Below are positions 2,359 through 9,382 of a stretch of 10,259 nucleotides of DNA, piece after piece. Numbering within the stretch: position 1 is the first letter of the stretch; each line of letters opens with the position of its first letter. Under the pieces are notes generated by a model that was not told the origin of the DNA, ran no database searches, and saw only the letters and a list, made by a program, of their open reading frames with translations. Source of the stretch: Giardia intestinalis. Lineage: Eukaryota. The stretch lies in NCBI GenBank assembly GCA_000002435.2, contig AACB03000031.1. One strand, given 5' to 3'. The translations under genes and the position numbers were made by a program.

Positions 2359-2439
2359 GCCGGGCGCGGGCGCCGCGGGCCGGGCGCCTCCCTGCGCGGG
2401 GGCCGCCGCCTGGCACGGGGGCCGCCCCCTCCGTGCCCA

Positions 2440-2716
2440 TGCCGTGTCGGGGGTCCCCCCTATAGTGCCGGGCGGAGGCCGCCCCCCACAGCCCGGCCCG
2501 GGTCCGCCTGCACCACACTTTTTTGGATTCCCTTGGGGCCCTCTGCCCCCCTCCAAAAAACCGGCCCTCGCGAGATAAAGCACCTTGTCCTATATAGTGC
2601 GTGACGGAGGCCGGCCCCCACACACCCCCTGGAGTCCCCCTGCACCACATTTTTTTGAAATCCCTTGGGGGCGTCCGGGGGGCCGGGGGGCCGGTCCGCG
2701 GGGAGCGCCGGGGAGC
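2440..2716 (-). promoter_or_regulatory. Candidate RNA polymerase I promoter or upstream control region for the downstream SSU-5.8S-LSU transcription unit. Hypothesis only.
   Basis: Position: 100-340 bp upstream of the mature SSU 5' end on the transcribed (minus) strand. It holds the only AT-rich boxes of the proximal spacer. Minus-strand sequences are GGCACTATAGGGG, GGGAATCCAAAAAAGTGTGG, CGCACTATATAGG and GGGATTTCAAAAAAATGTGG. The duplicated architecture is typical of rDNA promoter/enhancer repeats. No transcription-start data are available from the sequence. Confidence 0.25.
2456..2690. repeat. Imperfect tandem duplication, two units of about 95-135 bp (2456-2588 and 2589-about 2690), roughly 80% identical.
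   Basis: Unit 1 (from 2458): cctata--gtgccgggcggaggccgccccccacagcccggcccgggtccgcctgcaccacacttttttggattcccttggggcc. Unit 2 (from 2589): cctatatagtgcgtgacggaggccggcccccacacaccccctggagtccccctgcaccacatttttttgaaatcccttgggggcg. Both carry TATAG/TATATAG and T6-7 boxes, which are rare in this 80% GC DNA. Confidence 0.75.
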
Positions 2717-3540
2717 CCGGGCGGACCCTGCAGGACTGCATATCACGGCAAACCCTCCTGTGCGGACCGCGTGTCCCGGGCTCCCTGCCGGTCGGGAGAT
2801 CCGCGCCCCTCGTTCTCCGTCCACCGTGCCCCGGGGAGGCCCTTGACTGCAAAACGATCGAATTGGAGGCTGACTGTGCATCCGGGCGCTCTGGGGGCCC
2901 TCTCCGGGGAGACCGCCCGAAACGGCTTCTCGCGGGGATCTCAGCAGCCGTGGCTATATACGGTCCGTCTCTAACCTATATGATTGCTGGCAGCGGGAGG
3001 GCACTGCGTGGGGGGCGGCCCCCCGGAAGGGCGCGGTCCGAGGAGGGGCCCCCGACCGGCCCTGGACCGACTGGGGCAGCCCCGGGTGCTGTGCGTGCGC
3101 CTGGCTGCAGCGGGGCCACGGGGGCGCAGGAGGCCGCAGGAGAGACCGGAGTGTTTACTGGCCCGGGGGATCGGCTGCTCTGGGCCGTCCGGGGGTCCTT
3201 CCGCGCTCTCCCCGCGGTCCCCCGGTCTCCTGCACCGGGCCTCCCCAGCGCCCGTCCCCGCACGTGGGCGTGTCTCCCGGTCGTGCGTGGCCTGCTGGAG
3301 GCGCTGGGCCTCCCTGCCGCCCTCTCTGTCTGGATCCCCCGGGCCGCCTCCCCCGGGCCCCCTGCGGTCCTGCGCCGCCCCCCTGCGCACACGGGCGTCT
3401 CTCTGTGCAAGGCAGACCCGGTGGTGGGCGTGCACTGCCCCCTGGCCACCCCTTGGGGCACCCTGCACTCCCTCAATCTTCTCTTTCCGCGCTCTGCCTG
3501 TCTGTCTGCCCCGCACCCCCCAGAGCAAGTGGGCCGCGCG

Positions 3541-3825
3541 CCCCGCCCCGCGCTCTGCAGGCGCGTCCCTCAGGCGATCGCAGGGCTCTGCGCCGTACAG
3601 GAGCGCCGCGCCGGGTGGTCTCCCCGGGCGGGGGCCGCTCGGCGACGGGGCACGGGGCTGGGGCGCGCGGCCGGGCGGGGCGCGAGGCGGGGTGCGCGCT
3701 TAGAGGCGGTCAGCGCAGGGCCCCCGGGCGCGGCGGCGCGGCGCTGCCCGGCCGGGCAACCGCGGGGCTGGCGGCCCGCGGCGGGCGTTCCTCTCGTACT
3801 GGCCCGCCGTGCTCTGGCCCCGGGG

Positions 3826-3878
<53 letters not shown>

Positions 3879-3928
3879 CCTTGAACGGGTGAACAATCCG
3901 ACGCTTCCGCGCCGGTGCGCGCGGACGG

Positions 3929-3961
<33 letters not shown>

Positions 3962-3979
3962 GCGTCGCTGCGGGCGCTC

Positions 3980-4018
<39 letters not shown>

Positions 4019-4460
4019 CCACCTCCGCGCCCGCGGCCGGGGCGGCGAAGGATCGGTAGGCCCCGCTTTCGCGGCCCGCGCCGGCACGGGGGGCGCGGGT
4101 CGGGCGGGCTTGTGCCCTTCTGCTCCGCGGGAGGTCTCCGTCCTCGCTGAGCCCGCCGTGGGACGCCTGCGGTCCGGTGTAGCAGGCGCGCCGCCCCAGC
4201 CGAACTCCCCGCCCGGGCGGGTCCCCGCGCGACCGGGTGAGCGGGGCGGCGGCGGCCGTCAGGGTGTCTCAGGGGCGCGGCCTCCCCTGTGCGCTGCGCC
4301 GGCCGCCCCGCCCCACAGGCCCGGGCTGGAGTCAAGCTCAAAAGGGTCTTCTTGCCCCGCTGGCCGGCCCTCGCCCGTTCCCGAGGCTGGAGGCTCGCGG
4401 AGGCGCGGCTCGGGACAGTGGGATCCTCGTTGGTCCATTCATGCACGTCGGAAATTGCCC

Positions 4461-4512
<52 letters not shown>

Positions 4513-6234
4513 AGGGCTTCGGCGGATCGCTTCACGGTGACGGTCGTGGCACTGGGCAGAAATCACGTCGCGCCAGCGCCGGGTGCGGCCCTCGCGACGC
4601 TGTGTTTCTAGTAAACAGTCGGGATCCCCGCGTCCGTTCCAGTTCTGACCCGGCGCGCCGTCAGAGCCACTCCTTTTCCCGAGGTTACGGAGCCGGCTTG
4701 CCGACTTCCCTGAGCCGCGTTCGCTCCCGCGCTAGAGGCTGCTGACCCCGGAGTCCTGCTGCGGTCGGTACGGCGCGCGGCCGGCGCCCCCCGGCTTTTC
4801 AGGGGCGGCCGGGGACGCGCGGGGTCCGCCCCCGGGCCCCCCTCTCCGCGCAAGGCGTCCGGGGGCTGCGGGGCGTTCGCGGGCCGGGGCGCCGCCCGCC
4901 GCGGTCCCCGTGCGCGTCGCCGGGGGGCGGGCGTCTCCGCGGGGGCCGCGCCTGCCGGAGTCTCCGCCGGCTCCCCGTTCGACGGGCGGGCACGCCCCTT
5001 CCCGGTCTTCACCCGCCGCTTAGGCCCGAGTCACCCGCGGCCAGATGCAGGCGCCGCGGAACCCGTCTCCCCCTCAGTCCTCCGGGGCGCGGAGTAGCGG
5101 CTACTGCTGCCGAGATCTGCACCAGAGGCCGGTCCGGCGGGGCCTGCGCGCCGCCTTCGCCCCCGGGGCCTCTGCGGCCTCCTACCCGCCGCGCGCGGCG
5201 GCCGGGCGCGGGTCCGGGGCTCCGGCGCGCTCCATTTTCCGGGCCGGCCGATTCGGCTGGTGGGTTGTTACACACTCCCTGGAGGATGCCGACTTCTGGG
5301 GCCACCTTCCAGCTGTCGGGACCGGCCGACGCCGTTCCGCGGGCCCCGGCGGCGCACCCTGGCCCGGCGTCCGGATCGTCCCGCCTCGCCCGTCCTGCTT
5401 ACCAGGAGGGGCCCACGCGCCGCCCGCATTCGCCCGCCCCGCCCAGGCCAGCGGCGGGGCGGCGCGGCCCTTCGGAGTTTGGGGGGCGGGCGAGGGGCAG
5501 GCCCCCCGCTCCCGCCGGCCAGCGCTCTACGGGCCGCAACTGCGGGGCGGCGGCTGTCCTGGGAGACATTTCGGAGGCAACCAGCTACCAGGCGGTTCGA
5601 TGAGTCTTTCGCCCCCATGCCCGGCTCCGACGAGCGATCTGCGCGTCAGCACCGCGGCGGGCCTCCACCAGGCTTTCGCCCGGCCTCGCCCTCGCCGGGC
5701 ATAGATCACCGCCTTTCGGGCCCACGCGCCGCGGCTCGGCCCGCGCACGCCCGCAGGGGCATGGCGGGCCCGGGGCGTCTCGCGCTCGCTCCGCCGCGGG
5801 GGCTCCCTCGGGCTCGCCGCGGCGCGTGGCTCCTCGGTCCGTGTTTCGAGACGGGGCCGGCGGGCCGGCGGCCGGCCGGGTTCAGGTCTTTTGAGCGGCC
5901 GCAGGGCGTCCTTTTCACCGTTCGCTCGCGCTACTTGGTCCGCTATCGGTCCCGGGGCGTATTTAGCCTTGGAAGGGCCGCGCCTCCCTTCGCGCTGCAC
6001 GCTCAAGCAGCGCTACTCGCCGCGCAGGCCCGGCGGCCGCCGTACGGGGCTTGCACCCTCTCGGGCGGGGCCCTCGGGCCCCCTCGCGGCGGGCCTGCGC
6101 CTGCGCCCCACAGCGCGCCTTCGGGGCGGGCTCCTCCCGCGTCGCTCGCCGCTACGGGGAATCCCGGTTGGTTTCTCCTCCGGGGCGTACTGATATGCTT
6201 AAGTTCCGCCCGTCGCCCCCGCCGCCTCGGGCCG
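3541..6234 (-). rRNA. Large-subunit rRNA, complete, about 2.7 kb. The 5' end at about 6234 is good to +/-10. The 3' end near 3540 is good only to +/-100.
   Basis: All motifs are read as reverse complement of the plus strand. Sarcin-ricin loop: 3787-3800 gives AGTACGAGAGGAAC. 3832-3899 gives GGATTGTTCACCCGTTCAAGGGATCGTGAGCTGGGTTTAGACCGTCGTGAGACAGGTTAGTTTTACCC. About 3701-3715 gives CTGACCGCCTCTAAG. 3990-4000 gives AGGGATAACTGGCTTGTGGC. 4463-4503 gives CGGGAGTAACTATGACTCTCTTAAGGTAGCCAAATGCCTCG. About 4328-4350 gives AAGACCCTTTTGAGCTTGACTCC. LSU 5' motif: 6197-6214 gives GGAACTTAAGCATATCAG. Confidence 0.82.
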
Positions 6235-6292
6235 CGCAGCCCGGCGGGACCGCCCCGGGGCGCTCTCTGCGGCGCGGCGCGCGGCACGCGGC
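6235..6292 (-). other. ITS2, second unit.
   Basis: Copy of 671-728 at offset +5564. Confidence 0.4.
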
Positions 6293-6432
6293 GGGCGCCG
6301 AGGCGGCGGCGCCGGGGCGCGCTGCGTTCGAGGGTCGGTGCTTCTCGGGGCGGGCGGGTCCGCACCGCGTCTCGCGCTCCGCCGCGCTCTTCGTCGCCGC
6401 CCGGGCCGAGGCATCCGCCGGCGGGGCGTTCG
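6293..6432 (-). rRNA. 5.8S rRNA, second unit (boundaries +/-10).
   Basis: Copy of 729-868 at offset +5564, with the same 5.8S motif alignments. Confidence 0.6.
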
Positions 6433-6469
6433 GGGGCCGACCGGGCCGCGGGGGCGACGCGCGGGGCGC
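6433..6469 (-). other. ITS1, second unit.
   Basis: Copy of 869-905. Confidence 0.4.
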
Positions 6470-7923
6470 GCGAGGGATCCATCCGCAGGTTCACCTACGG
6501 ATACCTTGTTACGACTTCTCCTTCCTCCAGGCGCGGGGGCTCGCGGCCCTTCGCGCGTCCGGGGCGCTCGCCGCCGCGCCCAGTCGGTAGGAGCGACGGG
6601 CGGTGTGTACAAGGGGCAGGGACGCGTCCGGCGCGCGGTGGGGGCGGGCGCCTACAAGACATTCCTGGTGCGCGGGGGCGTTCCAGCCCGCGGTCCCGGC
6701 CACGGCGGGGGCTCCGCGCGTCCTCGCGGGCGCCGGCTGGCCCCGCCAGTGTAGCGCGCGTGCGGCCCAGGGCGTCTGAGGGCATCACAGACCTGCTATC
6801 GCCCCGCCGTCCTCCCGCTCGCGCGGGCCGTCCCGCGGCGCCCGCGGCCGGGGTCTCGCTCGTTGTCGCAATGGAGCAGACGGCTCGCGCCACGGGCTGG
6901 GAGCGGCCATGCACCACCGCCCGCGCGATCGCGAAAGCGCGCCCGGCTGTCGGTCCTCCGCGCGTCCGGGCCTGGTGAGGTGCGCGCGTTGAGTCAGATT
7001 GAGCCGCAGACTCCACGTCTGGTGGTACCCCTCCGTCAATGCCTTCAAGTTTCAGCCTTGCGGCCATACTCCCCCCAGAGCCCGGAGCCTCCCGGTTTCC
7101 CTGGGCGGCCGGCGGGACGCGCGCGCCGGCCGCGGGGCGGCACCGTTTACGGCCGGGAATACGGTGGTGTCTGATCGCCTTCTAGCCCCCGGCCTTCGCC
7201 CTTGATTGACAGAGGCGGTCTTGGCAGGCGCCTGCGCGGCCGGCGGTCTCGGCGGGATCATCCTGTTTCACCCGTCCCCGGCCGGTACCGGTGCCCCCGC
7301 CCGCTCTCCTCGGGGCTGCCGCGGCGCGCCGCGCCCGCTGCGCGGTCCCACGCGGCGGGTCCAACGGGCCTGCCTGGAGCGCTCCCGTTTCCTCGTGGCG
7401 GCGGGGGGCCAACTACGGGCGTTTCAACTGCAGCAGCGCCGCGCGACGCTCGCCGAGCTGGAATTACCGCGGCTGCTGGCACCAGACCTTGCCCTCGGCT
7501 CCGCGGCGGGGGCTGTGGGCCCGCCTCGCTCGCGCGCTCCCCGTCGCTGCCTCGCGCGCCGCGCATTGGGCAAGTTCCGCGCCTGCTGCCGTCCTTGGAT
7601 GTGCGGGCCGTCTCGCAGGCCCGCTCTCCGGAGTCGAACCCTGATTCTCCGCCAGGCGTCGGGCCCTCGGCGCGCCGCGACCGCGCCGACCGGGTGATGC
7701 CCCGGAAGCCCGGGCGGGCCGTCGCTGCGTCACGCTGCTCGCCCGCGGGCGCCCGCCCTTGCGCGCACGTCTTGGCGCCGGGTTGCCAGCGGTGTCCGGC
7801 TAGCAGGGACCGCCGCGGGGGGTGCAACCGTTGTCCTGAGCCGTCCGCCGCGTCCCGGGTGAGCGGGCATGCATGGCTTCGTCCTTGGGGAGAGCGTCGC
7901 GCTCCGGCAGGATCGACCGGATG
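6470..7923 (-). rRNA. Small-subunit rRNA, second complete copy. It is 1 nt longer than the first because of a C-run difference at 7072-7077.
   Basis: 5' motif: reverse complement of 7906-7923 is CATCCGGTCGATCCTGCC. 3' motif: GGATCC at 6475-6480. The SSU motifs listed for 906-2358 recur at 7455-7482, 7031-7056, etc. Confidence 0.92.
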
Positions 7924-8004
7924 GCCGGGCGCGGGCGCCGCGGGCCGGGCGCCTCCCTGCGCGGGGGCCGCCGCCTGGCACGGGGGCCGCCCCCTCCGTG
8001 CCCA

Positions 8005-8276
8005 TGCCGTGTCGGGGGTCCCCCCTATAGTGCCGGGCGGAGGCCGCCCCCCACAGCCCGGCCCGGGTCCGCCTGCACCACACTTTTTTGGATTCCCTTG
8101 GGGCCCTCTGCCCCCCTCCAAAAACCGGCCCTCGCGAGATAAAGCACCTTGTCCTATATAGTGCGTGACGAGCCGGCCCCCACACACCCCCTGGAGTCCC
8201 CCTGCACCACATTTTTTTGAAATCCCTTGGGGGCGTCCGGGGGGCCGGGGGCCGGTCCGCGGGGAGCGCCGGGGAG
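8005..8276 (-). promoter_or_regulatory. Candidate Pol I promoter or upstream region, second copy. Hypothesis only.
   Basis: Same reasoning as for 2440-2716. Confidence 0.25.
8021..8250. repeat. Second copy of the ~130-bp spacer tandem duplication.
   Basis: 8021-8152 and 8153-about 8250 correspond to 2456-2588 and 2589-about 2690. It shows A5 where copy 1 has A6 (8120-8124 versus 2555-2560) and GACGAGCCGG where copy 1 has GACGGAGGCCGG (8168-8177 versus 2603-2614). Confidence 0.75.
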
Positions 8277-9097
8277 CCCGGGCGGACCCTGCAGGACTGC
8301 ATATCACGGCAAACCCTCCTGTGCGGACCGCGTGTCCCGGGCTCCCTGCCGGTCGGGAGATCCGCGCCCCTCGTTCTCCGTCCACCGTGCCCCGGGGAGG
8401 CCCTTGACTGCAAAACGATCGAATTGGAGGCTGACTGTGCATCCGGGCGCTCTGGGGGCCCTCTCCGGGGAGACCGCCCGAAACGACTTCTCGCGGGGAT
8501 CTCAGCAGCCGTGGCTATATACGGTCCGTCTCTAACCTATATGATTGCTGGCAGCGGGAGGGCACTGCGTGGGGGGCGGCCCCCCGGAAGGGCGCGGTCC
8601 GAGGAGGGGCCCCCGACCGGCCCTGGACCGACTGGGGCAGCCCCGGGTGCTGTGCGTGCGCCTGGCTGCAGCGGGGCCACGGGGCGCAGGAGGCCGCAGG
8701 AGAGACCGGAGTGTTTACTGGCCCGGGGATCGGCTGCTCTGGGCCGTCCGGGGGTCCTTCCGCGCTCTCCCCGCGGTCCCCCGGTCTCCTGCACCGGGCC
8801 TCCCCAGCGCCCGTCCCCGCACGTGGGCGTGTCTCCCGGTCGTGCGTGGCCTGCTGGAGGCGCTGGGCCTCCCTGCCGCCCTCTCTGTCTGGATCCCCCG
8901 GGCCGCCTCCCCGGGCCCCCTGCGGTCCTGCGCCGCCCCCCTGCGCACACGGGCGTCTCTCTGTGCAAGGCAGACCCGGTGGTGGGCGTGCACTGCCCCC
9001 TGGCCACCCCTTGGGGCACCCTGCACTCCCTCAATCTTCTCTTTCCGCGCTCTGCCTGTCTGTCTGCCCCGCACCCCCCAGAGCAAGTGGGCCGCGC

Positions 9098-9382
9098 GCC
9101 CCGCCCCGCGCTCTGCAGGCGCGTCCCTCAGGCGATCGCAGGGCTCTGCGCCGTACAGGAGCGCCGCGCCGGGTGGTCTCCCCGGGCGGGGGCCGCTCGG
9201 CGACGGGGCACGGGGCTGGGGCGCGCGGCCGGGCGGGGCGCGAGGCGGGGTGCGCGCTTAGAGGCGGTCAGCGCAGGGCCCCGGGCGCGGCGGCGCGGCG
9301 CTGCCCGGCCGGGCAACCGCGGGGCTGGCGGCCCGCGGCGGGCGTTCCTCTCGTACTGGCCCGCCGTGCTCTGGCCCCGGGG

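Follow-up and report, generated by a model that had tools for sequence, protein, structure and literature searches.

The Giardia rDNA unit and its spacer repeat

The region analyzed here lies in the ribosomal DNA (rDNA) of Giardia intestinalis, between the genes for the large-subunit (LSU) and small-subunit (SSU) ribosomal RNA (rRNA), and contains two tandem AT-rich modules that, judged by their sequence, are the best candidate so far for the Giardia RNA polymerase I (Pol I) promoter. The whole stretch of DNA under study, referred to below as the window, comprises 10,259 nucleotides of contig AACB03000031.1 (assembly GCA_000002435.2). Rfam placed the rRNAs on the minus strand in tandem units with a period of 5565 nt, of which the window holds ~1.85. 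The SSU genes are located at 908–2358 and 6472–7923, an LSU gene at 3675–6213 (3′ end at 3675), and partial LSU copies at both window ends; the intergenic spacer covers 2359–3674 (1316 nt) in the first unit and 7924–9227 in the second. Healey et al. reportedly described an rDNA unit of 5.6 kb in 1990. The window fits assemblage A of G. duodenalis in the diagnostic positions of its SSU 5′ sequence, in the unit length, and in the extreme GC content.

On the transcribed strand, the modules (2456–2690) lie inside the intergenic spacer, 98–332 nt ahead of the point at which the mature SSU begins. An earlier sequence-only reading, made by a model from the letters alone, had put the near end of this region about 100 nt from the SSU, in agreement with the 98 nt found, and had described there a tandem duplication of ~130-bp units with ~80% identity. 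The results showed that the duplication is real: 2461–2543 and 2593–2675 are direct repeats with a spacing of 132 nt, which match at 80% of their 83 positions without a gap. This was the top ungapped diagonal, scoring 33 at offset 132, where 200 dinucleotide shuffles of the spacer gave a mean of 12.3 ± 1.2 and a maximum of 17, so that the repeat stands ~17 standard deviations above the shuffle mean. The identity of ~80% applies to the 83-nt cores but not to the full period, which is 58% identical (ungapped), the other 49 nt of each 132-nt period being only 20% identical outside the cores.

The spacer had been described as about 80% GC; the measured value was 74.5%, with 66.8% in the module and 76.1% in the remaining spacer. 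The AT boxes that had been listed were found in their places, namely TATAG at 2461–2465, T6 at 2519–2524, A6 at 2555–2560, ATAAA at 2575–2579, TATATA at 2591–2596, and T7 at 2650–2656. Their reported concentration was also borne out, as five of the seven A/T runs of at least five nucleotides in the 1316-nt spacer fall inside 2519–2656 (138 nt; simulated clustering probability 0.009). They are not, as had been supposed, the only TATA-like boxes of the spacer, since TATATA at 2955–2960 and TATAT at 2977–2981 are present ~400 nt further upstream.

Related loci

Related sequences were reached by using spurious long open reading frames (ORFs) of the GC-rich rDNA as handles. One handle was ORF 2165–2881 (−), which spans the SSU 5′ end and both modules, and a second was ORF 1693–2583 (−), which runs from between the modules into the SSU. 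The search with the former gave one cluster with 95% identity and seven clusters with ~60% identity. The Giardia SSU 5′ end is present on all contigs fetched with these two handles, and Rfam found a complete SSU and LSU in each of the three to which it was applied. A third handle, an SSU/internal transcribed spacer (ITS) antisense ORF, led to contigs L017 and L018, described at the end, and its 99%-identical hit yielded one further A-like spacer, L019. Long ORFs are found in all six frames of the rDNA because of its GC content (an example is the 572-aa ORF at 5260–6978 (+)), and they are called as genes in public assemblies.

Ten related contigs contained usable spacer, four of them A-like (L006, L013, L014, L019) and six B-like (L001, L003, L004, L005, L015, L016), the latter with ATC at SSU positions 22–24. 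The SSU identity to the window was 99.8–100% for L006, L013, and L014 and 97.4–98.9% for the B-like loci; L019 was assigned as A-like by its upstream region, in which 11 of 390 aligned positions differ from the window.

Two boxes at fixed spacing

We aligned 23 copies of the module from nine loci. On the rRNA-sense (minus) strand, the module was seen to consist of a pair of boxes with a GC-rich stretch between them, in which none of the 23 copies has an indel. The consensus of the first box (Box A) is CCCCAAGGGAWTYC-AAAAAA-NN-GTGGT-RYAG, with the core form CCCCAAGGGAWTYCAAAAAA-NN-GTGGTGCAG, and that of the second (TATA box) is (C)GCACTATA(TA)GG, with the core form CGCACTATA(TA)GG. The strings CAAAAAA-NN-GTGGT and ACTATA(TA)GG were invariant in all 23 copies. 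In the window, the Box A motif had four matches (0 expected) and the TATA box motif ACTATANNGG also four (0.01 expected).

The distances of the boxes from the SSU were fixed as well. Box A starts at −167/8, −298/9, and, in the B-like loci, −430/1 relative to the SSU, the same in every lineage, and ACTATA starts at −107/8 (9/9 loci for this proximal copy), −239/40, and, in the B-like loci, −370/1.

In the proximal module of the first unit, the TATA box ACTATAGGGG lies at 2457–2466 (−). As a candidate initiator for Pol I, it would place +1 at ~A2461, 103 nt ahead of the SSU. In the sense direction, this box is preceded by an inter-box spacer at 2467–2507 (−), GC-rich, variable in sequence and fixed in length (67% identity between A and B over the central 35 nt), and by Box A, CCCCAAGGGAATCCAAAAAAGTGTGGTGCAG, at 2508–2538 (−), which is 87% identical between A and B and would correspond to ~−77 to −47 of the predicted start. 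In the distal module, the TATA box ACTATATAGG is at 2589–2598 (−); it could be the initiator of a spacer promoter that starts at ~A2591, or −233 relative to the SSU, and together with its flanks it is 99% identical between A and B. The distal inter-box spacer at 2599–2639 (−) is likewise fixed in length and variable in sequence (62% over the central 35 nt), and the distal Box A, CCCCAAGGGATTTCAAAAAAATGTGGTGCAG, at 2640–2670 (−) is where the A–B conservation begins. Past the distal TATA box follows a conserved segment of 37 nt, (GG)ACAAGGTGCTTTATCTCGCGAGGGCCGGTTTTTTGGA, at 2552–2588 (−), which holds the only sense-strand T6 (2555–2560) and is the most conserved stretch of the spacer, with 93–97% identity between A and B in 40-nt windows.

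Both modules recur in the second rDNA unit (8022–8219, minus strand), with TATA boxes at 8022–8031 and 8153–8162 and Box A cores at 8073–8090 and 8202–8219. The two spacer copies differ at nine columns of a 1363-column alignment, mostly by one-base changes in homopolymer runs; apart from these, the distal inter-box spacer shows a small CC/T change, and at ~2924 a single C/T substitution is present. Since the two spacers are near-identical, the second unit provides no independent information, and the differences look like long-read homopolymer noise or very recent homogenization.

The number of modules was two in the A-like loci, three in the B-like L001, L004, L005, L015, and L016, and two in the B-like L003 and L002. 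In L003, the single distal module joins the 5′ flank of the 'third' module to the 3′ part of the 'middle' one, a hybrid that could have arisen by unequal crossing-over or by assembly collapse. We also considered whether the A-like spacer retains an eroded third module, with GTGATATGCAG as its decayed TATA box, and rejected this, as the in-register identity to the B distal modules was 0.32–0.36 with a background of 0.29 ± 0.04.

Conservation of the spacer between A and B

A sliding identity profile was computed across the whole spacer, comparing the window with L001 and L003. The ~125 nt adjacent to the LSU (3674–3550; 9105–9227 in the second unit) were 93–97% identical between A and L001/L003, and could be a 3′ external transcribed spacer (ETS), a terminator, or mature LSU reaching past the end of the Rfam model. 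The next ~850 nt (3550–2700) were 35–60% identical and gave no alignment. Identity returned at the distal module with its Box A (~2690) and then remained at 70–97% through to the SSU, with the two highest peaks over ACTATATAGGACAAGGTGCTTTATC, at 97%, and over the proximal A6 box, at 90%. The predicted 5′ ETS, ~103 nt at 2359–2461 (−) if initiation occurs at the proximal box, was 78–93% identical in 40-nt windows, rising toward the SSU. Thus, the comparison across isolates that the sequence-only reading had proposed showed boxes that are kept between A and B, with 82–99% identity, beside an upstream spacer that cannot be aligned, which is the opposite of the outcome it had named as unfavourable.

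The TATA-like pair further upstream (2955–2960 and 2977–2981; sense CATATAGG and GTATATAGCC), ~600 nt from the SSU, showed an identity of only 35–50% with B, and even in the A-like L013 it has undergone mutation. It therefore serves as an internal negative control, showing that AT-richness alone is not maintained. Next to this pair, a block at ~2875–2955 was 65–68% identical between A and B within the otherwise unalignable spacer (sense ...GAGATCCCCGCGAGAAGCCGTTTCGGGCGG...GGATGCACAG).

Within the modules, the orthologous A-versus-B identity was 0.82–0.87 for Box A, 0.78–0.99 for the TATA box, and 0.62–0.67 for the central 35 nt of the inter-box spacer. The inter-box spacers of paralogous modules within a locus were more alike (0.75–0.77) than those of orthologs across lineages, suggesting that the repeat has undergone concerted evolution and that only the boxes have stayed constant across lineages. 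A/T positions were conserved at 0.80–0.83, as against 0.68 for G/C positions. In a background of ~75% GC, and given the decay of the unconstrained TATA-like pair, this argues for purifying selection on the boxes.

Paralogous modules were 0.74–0.80 identical over the boxes and the spacer between them but only 0.29–0.41 identical downstream of the TATA box. A likeness that stops at the TATA box is as expected if a promoter, and not transcribed sequence, has been duplicated.

We searched for RNA folds with RNAalifold. Compensatory pairs numbered 0/11 in the segment downstream of the distal TATA box, 2/41 in the inter-module region, and 1/40 in the putative ETS, and there was no covariation support for a fold in any of these three. 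The lack of compensatory pairs in 2552–2588 suggests that this segment is conserved at the level of DNA or sequence.

Two symmetrical elements were observed in the same area. A perfect 9-nt inverted repeat on the plus strand, TTTTTTGGA (2519–2527) and TCCAAAAAA (2552–2560), encloses 24 nt between the proximal Box A and the sense T6. RNAalifold pairs the U6 of this repeat with its A6, and the changes in L005 and L015 are uncompensated. A palindrome, CTCGCGAG, lies at 2567–2574, just upstream of the sense-strand T6. It reads CTCATGAG in the A-like L006, L013, and L019 and CTCGCCGAG, CTCATGGAG or CCCGCGGG in the B-like loci, its dyad being partly retained through paired CpG transitions.

A candidate Pol I promoter

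The position and strand of the boxes fit a Pol I gene promoter, as all of them lie on the minus strand, 98–312 nt upstream of the SSU. The classic signature of the plant rRNA transcription initiation site is TATAGGGGG (PMC8928438), and the plant Pol I start consensus is TATATA(A/G)GGG, with −55/−33 to +6 being sufficient as a promoter in Arabidopsis (PMC7928365). The Giardia proximal box contains TATAGGGG at 2457–2464 (−), which equals the plant signature and fits the consensus. This string had two matches in the window (0.07 expected), which are the proximal boxes of the two units, and it occurs nowhere else in the rDNA unit. The B-like loci carry TATAGGGGA at the proximal box, and the distal copies read TATATAGGA or, in some B-like copies, TATATAGGGGG.

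Competing annotation was absent. An Rfam scan of the spacer gave only a chance-level match to mir-647 (E=0.17), and the five ORFs overlapping the region had no Pfam match.

On the strength of these sequence features, we hold with moderate confidence that the region comprises a Pol I gene promoter and, further upstream, its duplicates in the form of one or two 'spacer promoter' modules, with transcription starting at ~A2461 (−) and a 5′ ETS of ~103 nt. The upstream copies have the same orientation as the gene-proximal one and are homologous to it up to ~+1 and not beyond, as spacer promoters are.

The proposed mechanism is as follows. The gene-proximal module would act as the Pol I gene promoter, in which the initiation complex may recognize Box A (~−77 to −47) as an upstream core element together with an initiator-like TATA^GGGG, so that transcription would begin at or next to A2461 and the 5′ ETS would be ~103 nt long. 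The upstream module would be a duplicated 'spacer promoter' or enhancer, of which the B-like lineages mostly have two. If the upstream module gives rise to a short transcript, its stop may be the conserved sense-strand T6, which precedes the gene start by ~95 nt. Another option is that the conserved segment past the distal TATA box belongs to the gene promoter and acts as its upstream control element. The predicted starts are thus ~−103 and ~−233, and in the B-like loci also −365. The repeat, its two-box structure, its selective conservation, its constant spacing and position, and the match to the plant motif are shown directly; it is from these that we infer the dependence on Pol I, the start site, and the roles of the individual copies.

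Several points weigh against this interpretation. (i) If the whole 330 nt were a 5′ ETS with processing or small nucleolar ribonucleoprotein (snoRNP) sites, one would see the same conservation between the distal module and the SSU; the proposal of a Pol I promoter or upstream element made in the sequence-only reading thus passes its conservation check and gains a predicted start site, but that conservation fits a longer 5′ ETS equally well. (ii) Conservation is highest at the distal TATA box with the segment that follows it, and not at the proximal box, so that the main start could be at ~−233. (iii) Pol I promoters evolve fast and share little sequence between groups, so that the 8-nt match to plants could be a coincidence; 0.07 expected matches per window is not negligible after the fact. 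(iv) The TATA-binding protein (TBP) of Giardia lacks residues for canonical TATA binding, prefers single-stranded DNA, and binds poly(G) tracts (PMC12209930), and with so divergent a TBP, the 'TATA' may not be read as such. (v) The comparison spans two deep lineages only, and every related sequence comes from short-read assembly of tandemly repeated DNA; the difference between two and three modules among B-like contigs could be assembly collapse of the 132-nt repeat.

The TATA-plus-G6 string ATAGGGGGGA fits the reported single-strand motif of Giardia TBP (gTBP), [AC]NNGGGGNN[AC]. We rejected this as specific evidence, since the motif occurs 12–14 times per strand in the spacer and is not discriminating; it is a lead only. 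As to the remaining factors, TBP (GL50803_1721) and Rrn3 (GL50803_11742) of the SL1-type machinery are recognizable in Giardia, whereas no SL1 TBP-associated factors (TAFs) have been identified, and two weak UBF/Uaf30-like matches have been reported (PMC9705513). It is conceivable, though on balance doubtful, that TATA-plus-G-run is an ancestral eukaryotic Pol I initiator kept from plants to Giardia, and that in Giardia it serves a minimal machinery with a ~100-nt ETS, its G6 docking the single-stranded DNA- and poly(G)-binding gTBP.

Alternative explanations

The possibility exists that the modules lie inside a longer 5′ ETS whose start is beyond 2700 or at the most distal module, and that the boxes are RNA-level signals, such as sites of early cleavage or of docking by U3 and the processome. 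The A–B conservation is unbroken from the distal Box A to the SSU, as it would be in a transcribed spacer. Giardia has also kept U3 snoRNP, Mpp10, and the UtpB and Bms1/Rcl1 subcomplexes (PMC3879963), which need sites in the ETS, and 103 nt is short for a 5′ ETS. However, the profile revealed no A–B-conserved promoter candidate upstream of the modules, apart from the 125 nt beside the LSU, and RNAalifold found no meaningful compensatory pairs across the modules. Boxes held at an exact distance while the sequence between them varies freely are more characteristic of a protein–DNA site, and the likeness between paralogs ends at the TATA box. We therefore regard a longer ETS as rather improbable. 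A pairing of the 5′ ETS with ITS1 into a processing stem was looked for with RNAduplex, and the energies did not stand out from those of shuffled sequences (−280.7 vs. −288 ± 11, and −148.6 vs. −147.6 ± 6.5). This test is uninformative because the DNA is so GC-rich, and RNA-level tests have low power here.

It is also possible that the AT boxes are AT-rich initiators of the RNA polymerase II (Pol II) type or cryptic promoters active in both directions, which would produce non-coding spacer transcripts in sense or antisense, or that they mark some other chromatin element (a replication origin or a fork barrier, for instance). Giardia Pol II promoters use AT-rich initiators (PMC12209930), the modules are the chief AT-rich islands of a 75% GC spacer, and on the plus strand each module presents a TATA followed ~55 nt later by T6 or T7, superficially a small transcription unit. 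Yet there is no credible gene for such promoters to serve, since the overlapping ORFs have no Pfam match, and the relatives of ORFs 2165–2881 (−) and 1693–2583 (−) came only from contigs with rRNA genes wherever Rfam was run. For all three searched ORFs, the relatives came only from rRNA-bearing contigs wherever these were checked by Rfam or an SSU 5′ match, a check that covers the fetched contigs but not those of a few weaker hits (P0011, P0014–P0016). An AT-rich element a few nucleotides 5′ of the start codon of a genuine gene, as expected of a Pol II initiator, was not found. Moreover, what has been conserved is ACTATA(TA)GG together with a G-run, not generic A/T, and the TATA pair at 2955–2981 has not been maintained. 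The evidence does not point to the analogy with Giardia Pol II initiators by which the sequence-only reading had supported its proposal, as the match is to a Pol I initiator instead. We consider initiators of the Pol II type and the other chromatin elements unlikely.

Two further readings were rejected. A plus-strand, Pol III-like mini-gene running from TATA to the T-run does not agree with the finding that the interval between them is the least conserved part of the module, which indicates that no functional small RNA is encoded there. A protein-coding function does not agree with the absence of Pfam matches among the five overlapping ORFs.

In many rDNA units, a terminator is found 100–250 nt upstream of the start, examples being mouse T0, Xenopus T3, and the yeast Reb1 sites. 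The modules could accordingly be a promoter-proximal Pol I terminator or pause array (T0-, T3-, or Reb1-like) acting against read-through from the upstream unit, with the core promoter in the GC-rich 100 nt beside the SSU. Between the modules (2555–2574), the conserved sense-strand T6 is preceded by a GC-rich palindrome. Nevertheless, there is just one sense T-run per unit, whereas repetition and invariance are found in Box A and the TATA box. Moreover, promoter and ETS would both have to fit into the final 100 nt ahead of the SSU, leaving almost no ETS. A terminator array in place of a promoter thus appears quite unlikely, but a terminator is compatible with, and not exclusive of, promoter function of the proximal module.

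Finally, a functionless, neutral tandem duplication by slippage or unequal crossing-over in the spacer is very improbable, for although repeats are common in rDNA spacers, the copy number appears to vary between two and three among lineages, and the inter-box spacer is under concerted evolution, the boxes have been kept across lineages while the surrounding spacer diverged beyond alignment, motifs and spacing are invariant in 23 copies, and the AT boxes persist in a GC-rich background in which unconstrained TATA boxes decay.

Comparison with known systems

One close parallel to the candidate Pol I promoter with upstream duplicates in Giardia is found in plants. Both the plant rRNA promoter (TATATA(A/G)GGG), with its Arabidopsis-type spacer promoters, and the Giardia modules have a TATA-plus-G-run on the transcribed strand upstream of the SSU, and the plant signature occurs as the exact string TATAGGGG(GG) at the Giardia proximal box. 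Both are compact (a minimal promoter of −55/−33 to +6 in plants, Box A at ~−77 to −47 plus the initiator in Giardia), and in both, upstream promoter duplicates have the same orientation. The plant promoter work goes back to Doelling & Pikaard 1993/1995/1996, as cited in PMC7928365. The differences are that the predicted 5′ ETS of Giardia is ~0.1 kb, whereas that of plants is ~1–2 kb; that the Giardia start, unlike the plant start sites, is a predicted one; that Box A has no described counterpart in plants; and that Giardia TBP is highly divergent. As Giardia is a metamonad, a common ancestry of the motif with plants is unproven.

Spacer promoters and enhancer repeats of Xenopus, Drosophila, and mammals are likewise tandem promoter copies in the intergenic spacer (for example PMC5765358, PMC12326227, and PMC2120851). 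They share with the Giardia modules a likeness to the gene promoter that ends near +1 and concerted evolution, and their copy number varies, as that of the modules may among Giardia lineages. In contrast to these animals, Giardia has one or two extra copies with a 132-nt period, directly beside the gene promoter, and no separate enhancer arrays, and, as regards a UBF-type architecture, shows two weak UBF/Uaf30-like matches (PMC9705513). By analogy with plants, Xenopus, Drosophila, and mammals, a duplicated promoter directly upstream of the gene promoter, with a likeness that ends at +1, is the architecture of a spacer promoter.

In Acanthamoeba castellanii and other eukaryotes, a core promoter element known as the ribosomal initiator (rInr), an A/T-rich stretch followed by G residues that straddles the Pol I start, was reportedly described by Radebaugh et al. 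in 1997 (J Biol Chem). The Giardia TATA box may resemble it, and the TAFs of TIF-IB/SL1 are not identifiable in Giardia (PMC9705513). Within Giardia itself, the AT-rich Pol II initiators (PMC12209930) are also short AT-rich elements in a compact regulatory region, served by a TBP that does not bind canonical TATA. However, they sit 1–10 nt upstream of the ATG of a real gene, whereas the modules serve no real gene and carry a specific motif and a Box A at a fixed distance.

The sequence-only reading had also remarked that the Pol I start of this unit is not well characterized, which agrees with PMC9705513 (2022), where the G. duodenalis rDNA promoter is said to be one that 'has not been identified'. 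We found no published map of a Giardia Pol I start or promoter in the literature searched, to which Lagunas-Rangel et al. 2021 (Acta Trop) and Healey et al. 1990 did not belong. The former, as summarized in PMC9705513, predicted TBP/TAF sites in silico in the Giardia rDNA spacer, and it may have noted these TATA boxes before; the promoter was nevertheless still 'not identified' after 2021 according to PMC9705513. What the present analysis contributes is the conservation across lineages, the bipartite structure of the module, and the predicted start site.

Implications

Giardia is a model for minimal eukaryotic gene expression, in which the Pol I promoter and the pre-rRNA start are a gap (PMC9705513) and TBP is atypical (PMC12209930). 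The present analysis supplies testable coordinates, in the form of a two-box module conserved across assemblages. Should the modules be a Pol I promoter, they would (i) define the shortest known class of 5′ ETS, (ii) provide a Pol I expression cassette for Giardia genetics, and (iii) bear on whether the rRNA initiator motif predates the split of the major eukaryotic groups. If gTBP does dock at the G-run, this would be the first defined natural target that ties the unusual binding mode of gTBP to promoter function. If the modules prove not to be a promoter, they would still call for an explanation, since no other non-rRNA element of the spacer is strongly constrained, the LSU-proximal ~125 nt excepted.

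Other rDNA contigs

A metagenome scan with the SSU 5′ 21-mer CATCCGGTYGATCCTGCCGGA returned six loci and no Giardia; five were coincidences in coding sequence and one was an unrelated SSU with only 19 nt upstream. The contigs L017 and L018 contain more divergent Giardia-like rDNA, with antisense-ORF identities of 66% and 49% to the window, and end inside the SSU. L002, an ENA scaffold, holds a partial SSU at 1166–1945, followed by unrelated AT-richer repeats with an N run and a complete SSU at 2710–4161, and is probably a chimeric or mis-scaffolded rDNA edge.

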